Part shown: positions 17,183 through 26,825 of the stretch, one piece after another | How the letters are laid out: the number at the start of each line of letters is the position of its first letter | How positions within the stretch are numbered: position 1 is the first letter of the stretch | Origin: an uncultured bacterium | Lineage (GTDB): Bacteria > Chlamydiota > Chlamydiia > Chlamydiales > SM23-39 | NCBI GenBank assembly: GCA_964441355.1 | Contig: CAYTXY010000002.1 | Location: 1 to 33,612, forward strand | Direction of reading: 5' to 3' | DNA length: 33,612 nt | Position numbers and translations under genes: made by a program | The notes under the pieces: model-generated | What the model was told of the DNA's origin: nothing | The model's input: the letters and a program-made list of their open reading frames with translations, nothing else | Databases searched by the model: none

Positions 17183-17379
17183 GCCCTTGCTCCTCAACGC
17201 GAAATTTTTTGTCTAGTACACGGGTTTTTTCTAGGTGCTCTCTGTTCGGCTAAAATAAAAACTTGACTGTTTTTTTTCTTAATGCGATCCTAACCGTTTC
17301 TTTTTTTAGAGTTAACTCATCAGCTACCTGGGTTTGAGTTTAACTCTTGGAAACAAACCCGGGTTAAAGTGATGTGAGA

Positions 17380-18966
17380 ATGAAAAAAAAATGGATCCTT
17401 CTTTTTTTGATGATCAGTGCCTTTATCCAAGTAAAGGCTCAATTGAACTGGTCGGCCCCTGTTACCATTTCGGCGTCGACCATGGATAATTCCTCAGACC
17501 CTCATGTGGTCGTGGATACGAGTGGGAACGCGACGGCGGCGTGGGTGGAAAATGGTTTTGTGTTTGCGAGCTCTCAGCCTGTCAATGGTACGTGGGGAAC
17601 TCCAGTCGCTCTATCGGGTTCTGGAGCCTCTGCCCCTAGGATTGGATGTGATTCGAGCGGAAATGTGTCGGCGATCTGGCTTGCCTCTGATGGGAAGGTC
17701 ACATTATCCACTTTGCCTTTTGGTGGAAGTTGGAGCTCCGCTACTGCTGTCTCTTCATCGGGAGCCGCCACTCCTGTGATGGCGGTCAATGCATCGGGAG
17801 CCATGGTTGCCGTCTGGCAAAGGAGCGGGTTTATCGAATCTTCGGGGATGCAATGGGGTGGTTCATTGAGCCTGGTCAGCACGCTCTCCCCTGCTAATTC
17901 GAGCAACCCCGATGTCGCAATCGGCGCTAATGGGACAGTGGTGGCAGTTTGGCAAACGATTTTGGGTACAGGGGCGGCAACTGTCGAGTCAGCGACCCAA
18001 AAAGGGGGTGTCTGGGGCTCGGCCGTCAGAATTATTCCTGTTTCATCGGCATTTAGTCATAATTTCCCGGTTGTCTCCGTAGATGCGATGGGGAATGCCG
18101 ATGTCATTTGGTTCCGATATTTTGTAGACGCGAATGGAAACTATTCCAACGTATTCGTTTTTTCGGCAATTTTGCCTGCATCGAGCACCAGCTGGAGCCT
18201 CCCGATTCAGATTTCAGATACAGGCATTGGAAACCCAGGTGCCCTATTCATCGACATTGCAACCGATAGCTCTGGGAACAAGGTGGCTCTTTGGTCGATT
18301 TCTTACGATGGCGAGTCCTACGTCGTGGAATCGGCTTTAAAAACTCCTGCAGGAATGTGGACCCCGGTAAGCTTCTTGAACAGCATCCCGAATATCTACA
18401 CTTTTAAAGGGAGTCTAAGTAGCGACTCGATAGGAAATTCTACAGCAATTACCATGCTCTTTGACGGCTCCTCTGTAAACATCCAATCCGCAGAAACAAG
18501 CACTACGAACATTACTGGTGAACCCGTTTGGTCATCGGAGACCACGATCTCTAGTGGATCCGATAATGGGTTTCCAGTGGTGGGCTCAAATTTCAATGCA
18601 GGGGGACAAGTTTCCTATGCGACAGCCGTGTGGCTTTCTTCGGACGGGACGAACACAACCGTTCAAGCTGCTTCAGCATCGCAGACGCCGGTGGCGCCTC
18701 CATCCAACCTTGCGGTCGTGCAAAGCGTCGATGATTTTGGCGTCTTTAAAGATTATTTCAACACGATCACCTGGACTGCTAGTCCAAGTGGAGACGTTCA
18801 GTTATACTTGATTTACCGTAACGGCCTCTTGATCAATGAAGTAGCTCCCAATGCGACCCAATTTATCGACCATAATACAGTGCAAAATGGATCTGTCACT
18901 TATGGTGTAGCAGCGCTTGATGTCAACTTTTTCTTAAGTCAAATTATAAATGTAAGCTTTCCTTAA
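17380..18966 (+). CDS. Secreted repeat protein (beta-propeller-like, about 45-50 aa repeats) with a C-terminal FN3-like domain
   Basis: Signal peptide MKKKWILLFLMISAFIQVKAQ. Recurrent units of the form W..P..[IL]S...(8-10)..P.V..D..GNA.A.W. The C-terminus PPSNLAVVQS...ITWTASP...YLIYRNG...TYGVAALD is FN3-like. ATG at 17380; the tracked ORF begins at GTG 17374. Confidence 0.8.
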   Translation: MKKKWILLFLMISAFIQVKAQLNWSAPVTISASTMDNSSDPHVVVDTSGNATAAWVENGFVFASSQPVNGTWGTPVALSGSGASAPRIGCDSSGNVSAIWLASDGKVTLSTLPFGGSWSSATAVSSSGAATPVMAVNASGAMVAVWQRSGFIESSGMQWGGSLSLVSTLSPANSSNPDVAIGANGTVVAVWQTILGTGAATVESATQKGGVWGSAVRIIPVSSAFSHNFPVVSVDAMGNADVIWFRYFVDANGNYSNVFVFSAILPASSTSWSLPIQISDTGIGNPGALFIDIATDSSGNKVALWSISYDGESYVVESALKTPAGMWTPVSFLNSIPNIYTFKGSLSSDSIGNSTAITMLFDGSSVNIQSAETSTTNITGEPVWSSETTISSGSDNGFPVVGSNFNAGGQVSYATAVWLSSDGTNTTVQAASASQTPVAPPSNLAVVQSVDDFGVFKDYFNTITWTASPSGDVQLYLIYRNGLLINEVAPNATQFIDHNTVQNGSVTYGVAALDVNFFLSQIINVSFP

Positions 18967-18975
18967 CAATATTAA

Positions 18976-20565
18976 ATGGGTAATTTTATGAAAAATTTAT
19001 TAATTTTTTTTATTTCGATGATGAGTCTTTCTCAGTTGACCTGTGGCAATCTCCATTGGACATTTCCCCCTCAGGCTCTTTCCACTCCAGGAATCAATGC
19101 AAGCGATCCTAAAGTTGCAATGGATCCGAATGGGAATGCCGTTGCAGTTTGGATTGAAAGCGGGGTTCTGAAATCCAAATTCAAATTAGCTGGTTTTGAT
19201 TGGGGCGCTGTTGCGACCCTTTCAGCAGCGGGTGCTTCATCTCCTGTGGTGGCTTTAGATTCTCAGGGGAAAGCGACTGCTGTGTGGATACAGGGCTCTT
19301 TAATCCAAGCGGCAACAAAAAATTACTTCGCAGCTTGGAGCGCTCCTGTCTCCTTATCCAATACGAATGCAACCAACCCCAGTTTGGCGGTAAATGGAGC
19401 AGGCTATGCGGTCGCCGCATGGGCAAGAAATGGAAACATTGAAGTTTCCGTCAAGCCGATTGGGGGCAACTGGCAAGCCCACAGTCTGATTATGAATCCC
19501 GGGGGCAATGCAGTATATCCTAAAGTGGCAATCGGAGGCGCCGGTTCCAACGCCATCGCATATCTCGCCTGGCATAGTACTGCAAATCCAGTCGATATAG
19601 TATACACTTCTTCAAAACTTCTATCTTCTGGATCCTGGAGTAATGCCACAGCAATTTCGGCCAATTCAAGCCAAGCAGGCTATGCCCATATTGCAGTCGA
19701 TGGAAATGGCAATGCAACAGCCGTTTGGTTTAGTTTCAATCAGACGGGCTCGGTCTATTCTTCCGTAATCGTGCAGGCGGCTACCAAGCCTGTGGGCGGC
19801 CAATGGAGCGCTCCCGTTTCTCTTTCAGATCCAGGGATGCGCGACCCGAGCACACTCTTGGCTCGAGTGGCTTACGATGCCACAGGGAATGCCATTGCCC
19901 TCTGGAGCAATTCATTCGATAATATGACTTTCAACATTCAATCTTCCATACACCCTGTTTATGGAAATTGGATGGAGCCTACAGATCTCATCGCTGATAA
20001 TTTGTACTCTTTTCAAGCAGGCCGCTCGGTCTGTTCGTTCGGAGATGCGTTGGCTCTCTATCTATTTTACAACGGAGTTGCTTTGCAGATCCAATCATCG
20101 GAGTTGGATATCACAGGCTTTATGAATAGCGTTTGGTCGGTTCCACTGACTATTTCCACAGGATTGCAAAATGGTTCCCCATCCGTAGCGGCAACCCTGA
20201 TGGGAAATGCCGTCAATTCAACTGCTGCTTGGGTCAACTCTAATGGAGGGACGAATTCCGTTGTAGCTTCTACCGGAACCAAGGCTCTTGTCTTGCCCCC
20301 TTCCAATCTTGCAGTGACGCAATCTTCAAACAACTTTGGCGTGTTTACTGAATATTTTAACACCCTAAATTGGCAGGCGAGCACCGATCCGAATGCTGTA
20401 GGATATCTCGTGTATCGCAATGGGGTATTCCTCGCTCAAGTCCCTGCGAATGTTTTGCAATTCATAGATAACAATCAGGTGCAAAATGGAAGTGTCACCT
20501 ATGGAGTGGCATCTCTGGACAGCCTGCAGTCGCATAGCCCCATTATCACCATTAGCTTCCCTTGA
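18976..20565 (+). CDS. Secreted repeat protein with C-terminal FN3-like domain, tandem paralog of 17380-18966
   Basis: Same architecture and length (529 vs 528 aa) and the same C-terminal PPSNLAVTQS...YLVYRNG...TYGVASLD. The alternative ATG at 18988 gives MKNLLIFFISMMSLSQLTCG. Confidence 0.8.
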   Translation: MGNFMKNLLIFFISMMSLSQLTCGNLHWTFPPQALSTPGINASDPKVAMDPNGNAVAVWIESGVLKSKFKLAGFDWGAVATLSAAGASSPVVALDSQGKATAVWIQGSLIQAATKNYFAAWSAPVSLSNTNATNPSLAVNGAGYAVAAWARNGNIEVSVKPIGGNWQAHSLIMNPGGNAVYPKVAIGGAGSNAIAYLAWHSTANPVDIVYTSSKLLSSGSWSNATAISANSSQAGYAHIAVDGNGNATAVWFSFNQTGSVYSSVIVQAATKPVGGQWSAPVSLSDPGMRDPSTLLARVAYDATGNAIALWSNSFDNMTFNIQSSIHPVYGNWMEPTDLIADNLYSFQAGRSVCSFGDALALYLFYNGVALQIQSSELDITGFMNSVWSVPLTISTGLQNGSPSVAATLMGNAVNSTAAWVNSNGGTNSVVASTGTKALVLPPSNLAVTQSSNNFGVFTEYFNTLNWQASTDPNAVGYLVYRNGVFLAQVPANVLQFIDNNQVQNGSVTYGVASLDSLQSHSPIITISFP

Positions 20566-22647: not shown

Positions 22648-22714
22648 AAGGCAGCCAAGCTCCCAACTGGTCGCAAAGTCTCGTCAATGAGGCTCGCGCA
22701 GACAATCATGTCGA

Positions 22715-25174
22715 CTAAATAGTCACTAGTCTTTTGATTCTCGAAAGAGATTTGGGGTCAAAAGTGCCTAGCACTCCCATTCCTGGATTGTTCATTAATT
22801 GATTCAGTTCTGATTGAAATGTTTTGGGGCTTTCTGTTTTGAAAATTAACTGTTTATTTTTGCTTTCCATGAGTTCAAGAAAGAGCGGCAATTCTTGATT
22901 TTCAAAACTAAAACCAGGTTTGTCATCCCATTTAAGGATAATGCAGTCTGCTTCCGTTGCTTGTTTTTTGACATTCTTTCGATATTGCCACTGTTCTGAA
23001 AACTGGTTTTGCTGTGCAAACATGTCCAGTGAGGAATTGAACTCTTCTAGAGAAAATTCATATATTTTCATACCGGGTCGCACCAGAGTATCGTGATTGT
23101 CATTCAAGCCCATGATGATGCCCATTGAAGCATTCGGAGTTCTGAAATCGATCGTAGATTGTAGGTTAAGTTCCTTATATTTCTTGAGAAAGCGGCTCCC
23201 CATTCGATCGCTCAACTTATCAAAAGCAATAGCATCTTTTAATCGCTCTGCAAAATGAGGTGCGTTAGATGTAAGGATTGTTTTTATGTGTCTTCCCTTT
23301 GCGTTTTTAATATTTTCTTTGTTGAGGAGTTCTGAGATGATATTTTCAATTGGTGAGTTATAGATTCCAAAATCATTCAAATCTTCGATGACAAGAAATT
23401 CGTAGTCTGAGAGAGGAAGGGTCTGCAACGCATTCCTTTCTATCGTATCGCTCGATAACCATAAGGTGTTTTCGTTTTTTAATGCTTTCCGAATCGCTGT
23501 CGTTTTTCCAGTTCCAGGCGATCCTGCAATGAAAAGCCCGCATTCATCTTGCTCTGCTTTCAGCGCTTGAATCCAGCCAATAATTTCTTTTTGTTCAGGG
23601 GTCCAGGCCCAGGAGGCATCCGTTGACAAGTCGATGGGTAGAGGTTGAATAATTTTGTGCCAAGCGTGCTCTTTTCGGTAATCTTTTCCCCGCACCTCTA
23701 GTATGCGAAGGCGTCCGCTACAGTCCCAAGAATCTCTTTCTGTTTTTACTGTCTCAAAGGGAGGTGTATTTGCATTGACTAAGATTTTCTTTTTGGTTCT
23801 TTCAGCATAAGTAAACATTGCCCTGGTTACATCAGTCAGCGCGGAGAGATGCTCATTCGTATCATCCACAAAAAAGAGGTCGGCATTTTTCCATTGGTTT
23901 TCGAAAATCGAGATGATGTCGTCAATCATCATCTCTTTCTTATCTGAATTCAAATACTTCTTTAAGATCTCGATGTAGCGAGCCTCTGAGAGAAGTTGAT
24001 TATGGAAATCAGCTGTAACAATTCGTTTCCCTTGATTTTTAAGTTTGGCGACTATGTCATATGAACAATGTGTTTTGCCAGTGCCGGGATCTCCATATAC
24101 GATTAATCCTTGATATTCATCTTTTGAACAATCTGTATAGAATTGATGCATGACATTAACAAGTTGTATCTGAAATGGATTTTTTTGTTCAAAATTTTTG
24201 ATAAAATCAGGATGTTGAATTTCGATTGAATTCGATGGTGGATCGATCAGATCAACATGAGGATGAATGATCATCACACTGCTCGATCCGAACTTCTGGA
24301 ATGCAGAGGTAAGCTCGTTGTTTTGTTGGATAGCGGGCAATTGACTCATCGCTTGAAATGTTTGGGATAAATCTCTCGATCTAGAAGCATATAAAAAGTG
24401 AGCGCAATTATCCTCAATCCAGCGACGCATCTTGTCAGGCATCAATCCCATTAAACCGGTCACGGGGACAGTATTAATAGGCAAAAGCCTATATTTGGCT
24501 TGAAGAACCTTGTCATTGGCTAGGTGCATCAGATGTCCAGCTCCACCAAAGAAAATAGAATGAGAATTAGAATTCAGACTGGCTATTTCGTTGTTGATGG
24601 CGGAGTTCCGAATTTCGCTTGCCACTTGAATTCTCGTCTCTTTACTACCAAACGGATCTACGCAATAAATATTGACGCCCATTTTTAAGAGAATCGGCAA
24701 TAAAATCTGGTAATTTAAAAATTTTTCTTTCAAATTGAATGGTTTAGTTATTATTTTATCAAGATGAGATCGGTCGACTGTTTCTGTCAGAATATCGTGA
24801 ATCCCTAAACTATGTGATGCAAGGCCTACCATAAGTTCACTAATTAAACTGTCATGCTCCTCATGATTTTCTCCAACCCCGATCAGGAGCTTTTTTCCTT
24901 CCGCTTCGGCAAGTTTCAATTCCTTTTGGATTAATGAATGGGCTCTATCGTAGAGTGAAGTAAGTTCAGAGAGTAGAGGATTGCTTTTCCCACTTAAAGA
25001 GTCAGAGTCTATTTGAATATTTTTTACGCGTTCGGGAGAGCAGAGTGAAGGCGCGTCGAAAATTCGAGACACAGCTTCTTGTATTTGCTTTAGGTTGGGA
25101 ACGACCAAAGCTGTGATTGCTGCAGCTACTGCGATCCCAGTGCGCACTGGGAGGGGACAAATGGGATATCTCAA
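22715..25174 (-). CDS. Large multidomain protein: N-terminal hydrophobic segment, ChaN/Tiki/EreA-like domain and two P-loop NTPase modules
   Basis: GENHEEHDS and FFGGAGHLMH match the paired GxxH motifs of the ChaN/Tiki superfamily. Walker A GDPGTGKTH pairs with Walker B LFFVDD. A second Walker A GSPGTGKTT pairs with FLVIEDLND. TTG start at 25172-25174. The gene is visibly more AT-rich than its neighbours. Confidence 0.7.
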   Translation of the reverse strand: MRYPICPLPVRTGIAVAAAITALVVPNLKQIQEAVSRIFDAPSLCSPERVKNIQIDSDSLSGKSNPLLSELTSLYDRAHSLIQKELKLAEAEGKKLLIGVGENHEEHDSLISELMVGLASHSLGIHDILTETVDRSHLDKIITKPFNLKEKFLNYQILLPILLKMGVNIYCVDPFGSKETRIQVASEIRNSAINNEIASLNSNSHSIFFGGAGHLMHLANDKVLQAKYRLLPINTVPVTGLMGLMPDKMRRWIEDNCAHFLYASRSRDLSQTFQAMSQLPAIQQNNELTSAFQKFGSSSVMIIHPHVDLIDPPSNSIEIQHPDFIKNFEQKNPFQIQLVNVMHQFYTDCSKDEYQGLIVYGDPGTGKTHCSYDIVAKLKNQGKRIVTADFHNQLLSEARYIEILKKYLNSDKKEMMIDDIISIFENQWKNADLFFVDDTNEHLSALTDVTRAMFTYAERTKKKILVNANTPPFETVKTERDSWDCSGRLRILEVRGKDYRKEHAWHKIIQPLPIDLSTDASWAWTPEQKEIIGWIQALKAEQDECGLFIAGSPGTGKTTAIRKALKNENTLWLSSDTIERNALQTLPLSDYEFLVIEDLNDFGIYNSPIENIISELLNKENIKNAKGRHIKTILTSNAPHFAERLKDAIAFDKLSDRMGSRFLKKYKELNLQSTIDFRTPNASMGIIMGLNDNHDTLVRPGMKIYEFSLEEFNSSLDMFAQQNQFSEQWQYRKNVKKQATEADCIILKWDDKPGFSFENQELPLFLELMESKNKQLIFKTESPKTFQSELNQLMNNPGMGVLGTFDPKSLSRIKRLVTI

Positions 25175-25324
25175 TTGGTTTATTGCTAGCAGGGTAATTC
25201 TCCGGTAAAAAATCTGTCTAATTTTACTTTATTTATTAAATAATTTCAAGTTTTATACTTATTTAGATATCGTCAGTGTGTTAGTGAATTATTTATTTTT
25301 TTGGGATACGTTCATCGTGAACCT

Positions 25325-25640
25325 ACAGGTACGGTACGGCCGCCGCGGAGCAGGCGGCTTATCTGCGCACGGTAGGGACCCGCGAAGCGGGAGCGCGAGT
25401 GCAGCCGATGGCGGGTTCGGGCAAAGAGCAATCGTGCTGCAAAAGCGAGGAGGCGCACTCTGTGCGACGCACGAGCAAGGCACGATAGAGAGCGCTTCTG
25501 ACGCCACGCAGTAGGCGGCCTTAAGAAATCGCGCGACTGGTGCTCGCAGCCCCAATCCCGCCGCCTGGGCGTGCGGGGGCGGCGCGGAAAGGGGGCCCAA
25601 AAATGTTTCATTTTGGGGAAAGTCCGCAGAGCAGCCCGAC
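25325..25640 (+). ncRNA. GC-rich structured-RNA candidate with RNase P RNA-like motifs in non-canonical order
   Basis: About 68% G+C (41 of 60 in each of two lines counted), against AT-rich flanks. It contains only short arginine-rich ORFs on both strands. GGAAAGTCCG (25617-25626) is CR-I-like and is preceded by a hairpin at 25595-25616. GCGGCTTATC (25354-25363) is CR-V-like. The two can pair as AAG-U-CCGC / GCGG-CUU with a bulged U. GAGCAAGGC (25473-25481) and GTAGGCGGCCTTAAG (25511-25525) also recall M1 RNA. The order is CR-V-like before CR-I-like, so this is not a canonical rnpB. Confidence 0.4.
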
Positions 25641-25732
25641 CGTCTTTGGTCTTTACTATTTTAATACGTTAGCCCTGATTTGCCTTGAATTTTGGGCCTT
25701 AGTGTGATAAAACTTGGGCTAGGAGGCCTCCC

Positions 25733-26825
25733 ATGCAGTTTGAAACTCAGGAAAAACTGAAATCGATCGATGAGCGCTTGAGCGCGATGTGGAGGTATCT
25801 TTGACCTGGCGGTCAAAGAAGAAGAAGTCCGCAGGTTAGACGAGAAAATGGCGTCTCCCGACTTTTGGGACGATGGCGACGCCGCAAAAAAAATCATTGA
25901 AGACAGCAATCGCTTAAAGCTCTGGACCGTTCCTTATAACGAGTTGAAGAGCCGGTTTCAAGATGTCAAGGATCTCTTGCCGGAAGCGGAATCGCTCGGA
26001 GATTCCGACCTTGTCAAAGAGCTCTTGGAGAATTTGCTTGACATAGAGAAGAGGCTCGGCGATCTGGAGATTCGAAAAATGCTCTCCGGAGAACTGGACA
26101 ACAGGGACTGTTACCTTGAGGTCAACGCAGGCGCCGGCGGGACTGAGTCTTGCGATTGGGCCGCGATGCTTTCCCGGATGTATCAGAGGTACGCTTCCCG
26201 AAAAGGGTGGAAGGTCGATGTGGTCGACCGCCTTGAGGGGGAGGTGGCTGGGATCAAGAGCATGACTTTTCGGTTCACAGGCCCTTTTGCCTACGGCTAT
26301 TGCAAATCGGAGAAGGGGGTCCACCGGCTTGTCCGGATTTCTCCTTTCGATGCCAACGCGAAGCGCCATACCAGTTTCGCCTCCGTCGACGTGACCCCGA
26401 TCATCGAGGACATCCAGATCGAGGTTCGCCCCGAAGAGATCAAGGTAGACACTTTCCGCGCCTCTGGAGCAGGGGGCCAGCACGTCAATAAGACCGATTC
26501 CGCGGTCCGGATGACCCATATCCCGACAGGGCTTGTCGTCTCCTGCCAGAGCGAAAGGAGCCAGGTGCAAAACCGAGAGACTTGCTTAAAAATGCTCAAG
26601 TCCAAACTCTACGAAAAAGAGGTGCTGGAAAGGCAGGAGAAAATGTCCAGCCTCGGCGGGGAGAAAAAAGAGATCGCCTGGGGAAGCCAGATTCGCAATT
26701 ATGTGTTTCAGCCCTACACTCTCGTCAAAGATACCCGGACAAAAGTGGAGATCGGAAATGTCCAATCGGTTATGGATGGAGAAATCGACGAATTCGTCAA
26801 CGCTTATCTCAAGGAATTTGGATGA
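25733..26825 (+). CDS. prfB: Peptide chain release factor 2, translated via a programmed +1 frameshift (25733-25801 joined to 25803-26825)
   Basis: AGGAGG RBS at 25721-25726 and ATG at 25733. Frame 0 ends at ...TGG AGG TAT CTT TGA C. The +1 frame continues DLAVKEEEVRRLDEKMASPDFW.... The RF2-specific SPF motif (RISPFD) and the GGQ motif (SGAGGQHVNK) are present. Confidence 0.95.
25790..25805 (+). promoter_or_regulatory. prfB: prfB +1 frameshift site (internal SD-like GGAGG, slippery CTT, in-frame TGA followed by C)
   Basis: The sequence is tGGAGGtatCTTTGAc, with CTT at 25799-25801 and TGA at 25802-25804. It matches the classical autoregulatory RF2 recoding signal. Confidence 0.9.

Follow-up and report, generated by a model that had tools for sequence, protein, structure and literature searches.

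Several earlier orphan structured RNAs proved to be ribozymes, scaffolds of protein complexes or guides of mobile elements, and to our knowledge only few structured RNAs of about 250-350 nt are without a known role. Some structured RNAs are encoded in permuted order, as are the two-piece transfer-messenger RNA (tmRNA) of alpha-proteobacteria and cyanobacteria and the permuted signal recognition particle RNA of Thermoproteus. At the DNA level, the single-strand origins of rolling-circle plasmids and phages, as well as primosome assembly sites, adopt an imperfect, rod-like fold that is strand-specific and spans 150-300 nt. Permuted tRNA genes are also known (PMC3978253). Here, we analysed a stretch of 33,612 nt from an uncultured bacterium of the Chlamydiota (contig CAYTXY010000002.1; the window hereafter), in which a GC-rich island of 316 nt (25325-25640) lies upstream of prfB. 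The island probably belongs to a small family of structured RNAs that had not been described before and is located on strain-variable DNA of environmental Chlamydiota. It resembles the ROOL, GOLLD, OLE and raiA motif RNAs in being G+C-rich and non-coding in a genome of lower G+C content, in its multi-helix fold with covariation, in its occurrence on variable, phage-like DNA (one copy, at locus L086, has a Bro-N gene as neighbour) and in a context that does not reveal its function. On the other side, none of these RNAs matches the island in Rfam 15, the element is much smaller than GOLLD, ROOL and OLE, and it is so far known from four copies in one narrow uncultured chlamydial group.

The G+C content is 63-67% at 25300-25599, compared with 35-45% in the flanks and 47% in the whole window, and nine of the ten most G+C-rich 200-nt windows of the 33.6 kb start within 25301-25461. 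The G+C content of the three codon phases of the island is nearly equal (0.64/0.67/0.67), and codon periodicity is therefore absent. Neither of its two long antisense open reading frames (ORFs) had a match in Pfam; one of the frames had zero relatives in 5.8 billion proteins searched, and the other, of 99 aa, had a single relative, P0125, a likewise spurious ORF that overlies a homologous element. These results show that the island is non-coding, and both the compositional contrast and the lack of coding function claimed by an earlier reading of the sequence alone (the sequence-only reading) were borne out. Foreign high-G+C coding DNA was dropped as an explanation because codon periodicity was absent and protein relatives were not found in Pfam or among the 5.8 billion proteins. 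ARAGORN found no tRNA or tmRNA. It is extremely improbable that the arginine-rich 99-aa antisense ORF (25611-25312) is a genuine small protein gene, although its frame is open, starts with ATG and has P0125 as its one database relative. Besides lacking codon periodicity, the frame differs between the window and the closely related locus L090 by five non-synonymous and two synonymous changes, with two Trp residues lost (W to R and W to G), which argues that it is not a gene. Moreover, the L090 contig has no called gene at this place, the frame is closed in L086, where no gene is called at 1-396, and conservation tracks base pairing rather than codons.

With the 99-aa frame as query, HMMER was run over all of 1.84 billion representative proteins, and P0125 (116 aa) was the one match, with 48% identity along 73 aa and E = 9.5e-5; it is located on a 1175-bp contig of JGI 3300050821. 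Back-translated in IUPAC code, P0125 aligned to island positions 25360-25578 with a score of 49, against 11.5 +/- 1.4 for shuffles, and we therefore regard it as an ORF called on the antisense strand of a diverged island copy, about two-thirds of whose bases the back-translation would supply. A three-sequence profile led to L086 47-255, which lies 3.7 kb 5' of prfB beside the Bro-N gene and a 216-aa ORF. In this copy, L086 87-255 is 63% identical to window 25389-25554, and L086 47-95 is 78% identical to window 25579-25628. L090 has the island too, and is 96% identical to the window along 25281-25760. Of 106 loci, only L086 and L090 contain the pattern AGCCRRTGGC-N5-9-GGCAAAG, which is present a single time in the window; likewise, there is one copy of the element each in the window, L086 and L090, and the other loci, about 0.7 Mb altogether, contain none. 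The window and L090 copies are located at the prfB site, the L086 copy at another variable spot and the P0125 copy on its separate contig, showing that both the presence and the position of the element vary among strains. A metagenome scan in which the antisense ORF served as protein query returned 600 stretches, all at chance level, and no relative, and a scan with a three-motif DNA pattern gave 12 chance matches in a collection that contains neither the window nor L090. The element was not found in viral contigs (three patterns), phage records or plasmid records, and a search for extra repeat units 3' of the L086 element gave nothing significant.

The fold was addressed with a covariance model, R1, built from the window and L090 copies only (161 positions, 43 pairs). 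Across 0.5 Mb of chlamydial loci, R1 found L086 103-227 with 29.8 bits and E = 1.7e-4, and nothing else. In the long helix 25410-37/25531-62, five pairs have changed on both sides and are still paired in L086 (GAGCA/UGCUC to GGAGA/UCUCC, one G-C to U-A, and one G-C to C-G), and AAA/RCA and A/CYGG are retained as internal loops. In total, 96% of the cells of this helix are paired, compared with 35-53% when the partners are slid by 1-3 columns, and two of 500 shuffles reach the observed values. In P0125, four further pairs have changed on both sides; they belong to the hairpins 25379-91 and 25500-19 and to 25395/25400. Of its 17 fully determined pairs, 14 are kept, whereas 32-60% are paired when the partners are slid. 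The supported helices contain four to five G-U pairs and no A-C mismatch; the reverse complement would bear A-C mismatches, so the plus strand alone fits. The unpaired strings conserved in the family are AGCCGAUGGC, GGCAAAG, AAUCG, CGAUAGRGAGC and GCGACYGGU. These results show that the pairing is conserved by covariation, with a G-U polarity.

The sequence of the island is constrained as well. Between the window and L090, 7 of 316 island positions differ (2.2%), compared with 16 of 207 positions in the flanking spacers (7.7%; Fisher p = 0.004) and 38 of 142 four-fold sites of prfB (26.8%; Fisher p = 6e-15); in the NTPase gene next to it, 29 of 276 four-fold sites differ (10.5%; Fisher p = 2e-5). 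Thus, neutral-type sites in the neighbourhood change about four times faster than the island. The island and its immediate surroundings have eight substitutions relative to L090, and all predicted pairs survive them: three switch between G-U and A-U or between U-A and U-G, three lie in loops, and two (25501 and 25599) put a pair in place of an A-G mismatch. Among them, G at 25482 changes U-A to U-G in the internal hairpin, A25501 to C repairs the mismatch of the hairpin 25500-19, A25599 to C yields a perfect 10-bp stem in the second domain A, and G25642 to A is either a loop change or a G-U to A-U change. In the leader, the only difference from L090 is a one-base change in the length of a T-run. 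The features of the locus are collected in Table 1.

Table 1. Coordinates of the element, its parts and its carrier DNA in the window.
Feature	Position	Strand	Remarks
Strain-specific 3.0-kb insertion	22649..25677		NTPase gene and island, between the SBP_bac_3 stop and the prfB promoter
P-loop NTPase gene, 819 aa	22715..25174	-	divergent from the island; weak DnaC/IstB/Cdc6/STAND-like matches only
AT-rich leader	25300..25330	+	aligns with L086 9-39, ~61% identity, within an alignment of E = 6e-5
Extra hairpin GCCGCC-GCGGAGCA-GGCGGC (25339-58) and UUAU	25331..25362	+	contains the 'CR-V' string; no clear L086 counterpart
Domain A, first copy	25363..25404	+	closing helix 25363-71/25396-404 around the hairpin CCCGC-GAA-GCGGG (25379-91)
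Motif AGCCGAUGGC, then 5' strand of the long helix (GGCGGGUU C GGGC AAA GAGCA A UCGUGC)	25403..25437	+
Internal hairpin	25449..25499	+	3' side bears the family-conserved CGAUAGAGAGC
Hairpin GACGCC-ACGCAGUA-GGCGGC	25500..25519	+	includes part of the 'GUAGGCGGCC' string
3' strand of the long helix (GCGCGA CUGG UGCUC GCA GCCC C AAUCCCGCC)	25531..25562	+	23 pairs with 25410-37
Domain A, second copy	25579..25627	+	stem GCGGA (25584-88)/UCCGC (25623-27); contains the 'P3 hairpin' and 'CR-I'
Core-start remnant GAGCAGCCCGACC	25629..25641	+	compare GAGUGCAGCCGAU at 25397-409
Weak terminator-like hairpin GACC-GUCUUU-GGUC, then UUUACUAUUUU (U-run)	25638..25662	+	ends 18 nt before the prfB promoter-like site

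Comparison of the copies part by part gave the following picture. The extra hairpin is one of two similar units that form the direct repeat D1 (25332-58/25493-519). The closing helix of domain A is kept in L086 as CUGCAACG/CGUUGCAG (aligned by eye), with a two-sided change of C-G to A-U, a one-sided change of G-U to A-U and deletion of an A-A mismatch on both strands; a long-range helix 25363-71/25570-78 proposed by three-sequence RNAalifold was dropped in favour of this local helix, which L086 supports. The tip hairpin of the first domain A of the window is G+C-rich and the domain is diverged; its pair G25382-C25388 becomes C-G in the back-translated P0125. In the hairpin 25500-19, P0125 has U-A for C-G at 25502-17 and G-U for C-G at 25505-14. 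The string CGAUAG(A/G)GAGC is kept both in L086 and in P0125 (peptide QKRSLS). The second domain A aligned to L086 47-95 with a score of 37, compared with 11.3 +/- 4.5 for shuffles, and in L086 this domain lies 5' of the core and is directly followed by GUUGCAGCCGAUGG, the start of the core. Inside its stem there is an AU-rich hairpin (25596-25605/25609-25618), the stem of which is identical in L090 and L086, with only the loop differing. The segment that had been read as "P3 hairpin + CR-I" ("REARRANGEMENT"), the P3-like arms of which are those of this hairpin, is a second copy of the 5' domain of the family.

The second domain A and the 13-nt core remnant 3' of the core are the trace of a partial tandem duplication. 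The trace of a duplication that the sequence-only reading had pointed to therefore stands, but it had been sought in the wrong pair: the 11-mers are found at 25343-53 and 25624-34, and the duplicate of 25624-41 is 25393-25409 rather than the 11-mer at 25343-53. As in permuted RNA genes, domain A is placed differently relative to the core, lying 5' of it in L086 and having its best-preserved window copy 3' of it, and the short duplicated junction is the trace expected of tandem duplication followed by loss. The difference is that the window keeps a diverged 5' domain A (25363-25404), which makes the arrangement a partial extra copy and not a clean permutation.

The sequence-only reading had noticed strings like conserved parts of RNase P RNA in a rearranged order, and had offered a rearranged or permuted RNase P RNA, a decayed rnpB copy or an unrelated structured RNA as possibilities. 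All the strings quoted are indeed present, among them GGAAAGTCCG (25617-26), GCGGCTTATC (25354-63), GCCGATGGC (25404-12) and GAGCAAGGC (25473-81), and the P4-like pairing can be drawn, GCGGCUU (25354-60) being complementary to AAGUCCGC (25620-27) with one bulged U. For the motif tests, authentic E. coli rnpB (M1 RNA; locus L091) was used as the reference. M1 is an RNase P RNA of type A (RF00010), and the window copy, of about 330 nt and with a G+C-rich, purine-rich sense strand, is like it in size, G+C content and purine excess, in having ten identical strings of 8-12 nt (including GGAAAGUCCG, CGGCUUAUC and GAGCAAGGC) and in the P4-style complementarity of two of its strings. Exact 8-mers common to the island and M1 number 15 on the plus strand and only two on the minus strand. 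The control values were 3.4 +/- 2.4 in 1000 dinucleotide shuffles and 2.8 +/- 2.2 in 889 real GC-matched windows, none of which reached 15, and rRNA windows gave at most eight. The M1-like strings thus exceed chance, in the window copy alone.

Descent from RNase P RNA, either as a rearranged working ribozyme with a P4-like core or as a scrambled, decaying rnpB, is nevertheless very improbable. The ten matching segments, taken in island order, map to M1 positions 269, 270, 355, 225, 159, 144, 244, 202, 100 and 63; this scrambling agrees with the non-canonical order already recognised by the sequence-only reading, and the order I-II-III-IV-V of CR-I to CR-V within the P1-P18 scheme is not that of the island. 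The best local alignment of the island to M1 or to the RF00010 consensus was within the shuffle range, and no significant collinear alignment was found. Several of the matches map to regions of M1 that differ from one bacterium to another, such as the P12 tip and P14; the hairpin resembling the P12 tip shows covariation in P0125, and the two P4-like strands would be joined to the remainder with a polarity opposite to that of real P4. A circular permutation joined at the 11-mer was also tried and rejected, since hand-threading found no CR-V between 25526 and 25593. The family-level strings AGCCGAUGGC and CGAUAGRGAGC and the interrupted 23-bp helix have no counterpart in the RF00010 consensus.

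The Rfam comparison that had been proposed was carried out on the sequence in its native order. At gathering score, Rfam 15 matched nothing in the whole window, nor did any Rfam family match the window and ten related loci at that score. The RNase P covariance models (RF00010, RF00011, archaeal and nuclear) gave no match at E<=10 on 25150-25800, 25325-25545 or 25585-25660 (sub-windows of 651, 221 and 76 nt), while E. coli rnpB as positive control scored 318.6 bits with the same tool. As for a different known RNA family, the 4227 models of Rfam 15 gave chance-level matches only (SNORD50, ST7-AS2_2, Pseudomon-Rho and DnaX; E = 4-10, 10-14 bits).

The homologous copies point the same way. The CR-I-like string is not conserved, GGAAAGUCCG in the window being GGAGGGAGCG in L086, and the CR-V-like GCGGCUUAUC sits in a hairpin without a clear L086 counterpart, so that both P4-like strands lie in parts not conserved within the family and no invariant P4 helix is found across the homologues. 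RNAalifold pairs 25623-27 locally with 25584-88 and not with the P4-like partner. The L086 copy is without a match in Rfam and has four 8-mers in common with M1, a number reached by 132 of 500 shuffles, and back-translated P0125 scored 9.5 against M1 and 10.0 against the RF00010 consensus, both at shuffle level; the RNase P likeness is therefore a feature of one copy and not of the family. The P0125 peptide PRTFL was considered as a canonical GAGGAAAGUCCGG and dropped, being equally compatible with homology to window 25567-78. Furthermore, rather than one essential copy per genome, relatives with 97-98.5% identical RF2 have an empty site (L105) or different cargo (L086) at this locus, which is not how an essential gene would behave, and a decaying copy would not be under constraint. 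Both the rearranged and the decayed form of RNase P RNA fail on these grounds, and a derivation from RNase P is refuted as far as the tools used here reach; we take the excess of M1-like 8-mers to be a coincidence, sharpened by how the window was chosen. Of the possibilities offered, the evidence supports the unrelated structured RNA. The case also serves as a caution, in that statistically real RNase P-like strings, including a P4-like complement, were not common to the element's own relatives.

To place the element in its genomic context, the gene order around prfB was compared among close relatives. In the window it is SBP_bac_3 (+), the P-loop NTPase gene (-), the island and prfB (+). In L105, a 738-kb contig in which RF2 differs at 5 of 325 aa (98.5% identical), the site is empty: homology to the window ends at 22648 and restarts at 25678, the junction reads SBP stop TAG, ACAGTTA and TTTGCCTTG, with the prfB promoter region coming directly after ACAGTTA, and no element was found within 10 kb of prfB. 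In L090 (RF2 differs at 7 of 325 aa) the island is present, and in L086 (RF2 differs at 11 aa) an unrelated cargo of 430 nt occupies the same junction. In L087-L089 a small membrane-protein gene lies at the junction, and the small ORFs 5' of prfB are real genes. From the empty site of L105 and the different cargos it follows that this spot is variable and that the 3.0 kb with the NTPase gene and the island are a strain-specific insertion. The junction between SBP_bac_3 and the prfB promoter (22648/22649 and 25677/25678) is a hotspot with different cargo in each close strain, containing nothing in L105 (9822-9840), the 3.0-kb NTPase and RNA module in the window, an 85-aa Cys/His-rich ORF in L086 (3400-3830) and a membrane-protein gene of about 93 aa in L087 (1447-1725) and L088-L089. 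Judged by its RF2 relatives, the contig falls within environmental Chlamydiota, close to the Parachlamydiales, and the best RF2 of a species representative in GTDB is 82% identical. In the comparison of regions upstream of prfB that had been suggested, 80 GTDB loci gave no island homologue, and L090 has the island at the same site.

The prfB gene itself has a programmed +1 frameshift: its 23-codon first frame (25733-25805) ends in CUU UGA C (25799-25805), GGAGG lies at 25791-95, and the 325-aa second frame opens at 25848. A promoter-like TTGCCT-N17-TGTGAT at 25680-25708 (by eye) is kept in L086, L090 and L105. A role of the island as a prfB leader was dropped because it lies 5' of this conserved site and is missing from relatives that share the promoter. 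In L090, an ISAzo13-family insertion sequence with a 408-aa DDE transposase (334-1727) lies between the NTPase gene and the island, 15 nt 5' of the element leader, its insertion point corresponding to window 25284/25285; it has terminal inverted repeats of about 39 nt (GGAAGAACCAAATTTTAAGTCGTACAACCCATTGATTTA) with TTAG on either side. The other side of this insertion sequence is found on L081/L082, together with the NTPase gene (89% aa identity), and the insertion sequence is the reason why the contigs L081 and L082 end at that point.

A second variable spot lies beside the ferrochelatase gene. It holds the RNA element, the 216-aa ORF and the Bro-N gene in L086 (397-1530), a PhdYeFM/ParE pair in L105 (7350-7870), and two adjacent ORFs of about 530 aa without a Pfam match in the window (17374-18966 and 18976-20565). 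Separately, L021 1-360 is an ArsA-like coding fragment (GKGGVGKT) of 68% G+C at the start of a chlamydial contig of 48% G+C and is probably an assembly chimera.

The occurrence of the element at different sites in close strains, its hairpin-rich and partly repeated internal modules and its partial tandem copy would also suit a selfish palindromic repeat of the MITE, REP or RPE kind, whose hairpins would reflect movement and have no function for the cell or as RNA. A 7-bp direct repeat, ATACGTT, flanks the island at 25306-12 and 25664-70 (bracketing 25313-25663) and may be a target-site duplication or due to chance; an empty site for the island alone was not found. We consider such a repeat quite unlikely, because there is one copy per locus and none elsewhere in the 33.6 kb or in the other loci, the assemblers ran through it, and terminal inverted repeats were not found in the window copy. 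Furthermore, movement-related repeats keep their sequence, whereas these copies are 37% diverged with the pairing kept by two-sided changes, and the rate of change of the island is about a quarter of that of neutral-type sites nearby.

The NTPase encoded beside the island gave matches only at the P-loop level in Pfam, PADLOC, NCBIfam and PHROGs. The best of these weak matches are helicase loaders (phrog_50, E = 4.5e-10; PRK08116, Hda, DnaI and IstB in NCBIfam), and no relative was found in the PDB by sequence. The protein has two P-loop regions, at about 350-450 and 540-570, and its N- and C-terminal thirds have no assignment. Compared with the L081 orthologue, 90 of 819 aa differ while only 10.5% of the four-fold sites do, and the differences by codon position number 44/42/77, which indicates that this fast-changing gene is under relaxed or diversifying selection, as in conflict genes. 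A homologue in L083 (59%) has no island beside it. An obligatory link between NTPase and island was dropped, as the L086 element occurs without the gene and the L083 gene without the element. At L083 9140-9320, 3' of the NTPase homologue, there is a nest of perfect hairpins of about 180 nt, made of the units AGTCCGAAGGACT, CCCTGGGAAACGCCCAGGG and GCAGCCTGTAAGGCTGC with their mirror copies and closed by AAAAGTGCAACAGCCC/GGGCTGTTGCACTTTT; it is unrelated to the island in sequence and has no Rfam match.

Adjacency to a gene with helicase-loader matches raises the question of whether the island acts as DNA, namely as a strand-specific folded site of the 3-kb module (a single-strand origin, a primosome/helicase-loading site or a recombination site) served by the DnaC/IstB-like NTPase. 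The island lies at the extreme edge of the 3.0-kb insertion and adjoins an AT-rich spacer with inverted repeats, a good promoter was not found, and folded single-stranded DNA would show the same covariation and polarity; in adjoining both an AT-rich stretch and a helicase-loader-like gene, the element does resemble single-strand origins and primosome sites. We nonetheless consider a DNA site unlikely. The element also occurs without such a gene, the L086 copy having no such NTPase within 9 kb downstream, and the L083 homologue of the gene occurs without the element. In addition, the supported helices contain many G-U pairs, which would be weaker as G-T in DNA, and the 3' end is terminator-like.

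Taken together, we favour a structured RNA family. The unit is about 220-260 nt long and comprises a 5' stem-loop (domain A), the single-stranded AGCCGAUGGC and an interrupted helix of 23 bp, which closes a multiloop containing one or two hairpins and the conserved CGAUAGRGAGC. To this the window copy adds an extra hairpin near the 5' end and, from the partial tandem duplication, a second domain A and 13 nt of the core at the 3' end. Most likely, transcription of the element runs from left to right and yields a free-standing non-coding RNA of about 330-360 nt, predicted to end at the weak terminator just 5' of the prfB promoter. Its most likely role would be that of a folded scaffold for a protein, or of an RNA that pairs via its invariant loops, serving the variable DNA on which it resides.

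Several points weigh against a structured RNA family. It is known from only three full sequences, two of which are 98% alike, and one back-translated sequence; the covariation counts come from a model-fitted alignment and from a structure partly chosen with the third sequence, and single-stranded DNA would give identical covariation and strand polarity. On the minimum-energy fold of the window alone, 7 of 11 determined P0125 pairs hold, so that support is stronger for the hairpins than for the global fold. In folding energy the window copy is ordinary (z = -1.3 on the plus and -1.5 on the minus strand); for the L086 copy, z is -2.5 on either strand. The stem of the terminator is only 4 bp long, no convincing promoter was found, the best candidates having 8 of 12 matches to the sigma-70 consensus, and the window copy has its excess of M1-like 8-mers.

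The difference in domain order and the more-than-unit-length copy would follow from a circular or tandem intermediate if the element were a self-propagating structured RNA or DNA module spread in that way (viroid-like, retrozyme-like or rolling-circle). To this possibility, or to a guide or scaffold RNA or a ribozyme of an undescribed mobile system, we assign a distinctly low probability; the loops AGCCGAUGGC and CGAUAGRGAGC would then be active or recognition sites.

Should the structured RNA reading be true, environmental chlamydiae carry a folded RNA of about 250-350 nt on variable DNA that matches none of the 4227 described families. The analysis yields a defined family, with its motifs, a tested helix and the covariance model R1, which can be used to search genomes and transcriptomes.

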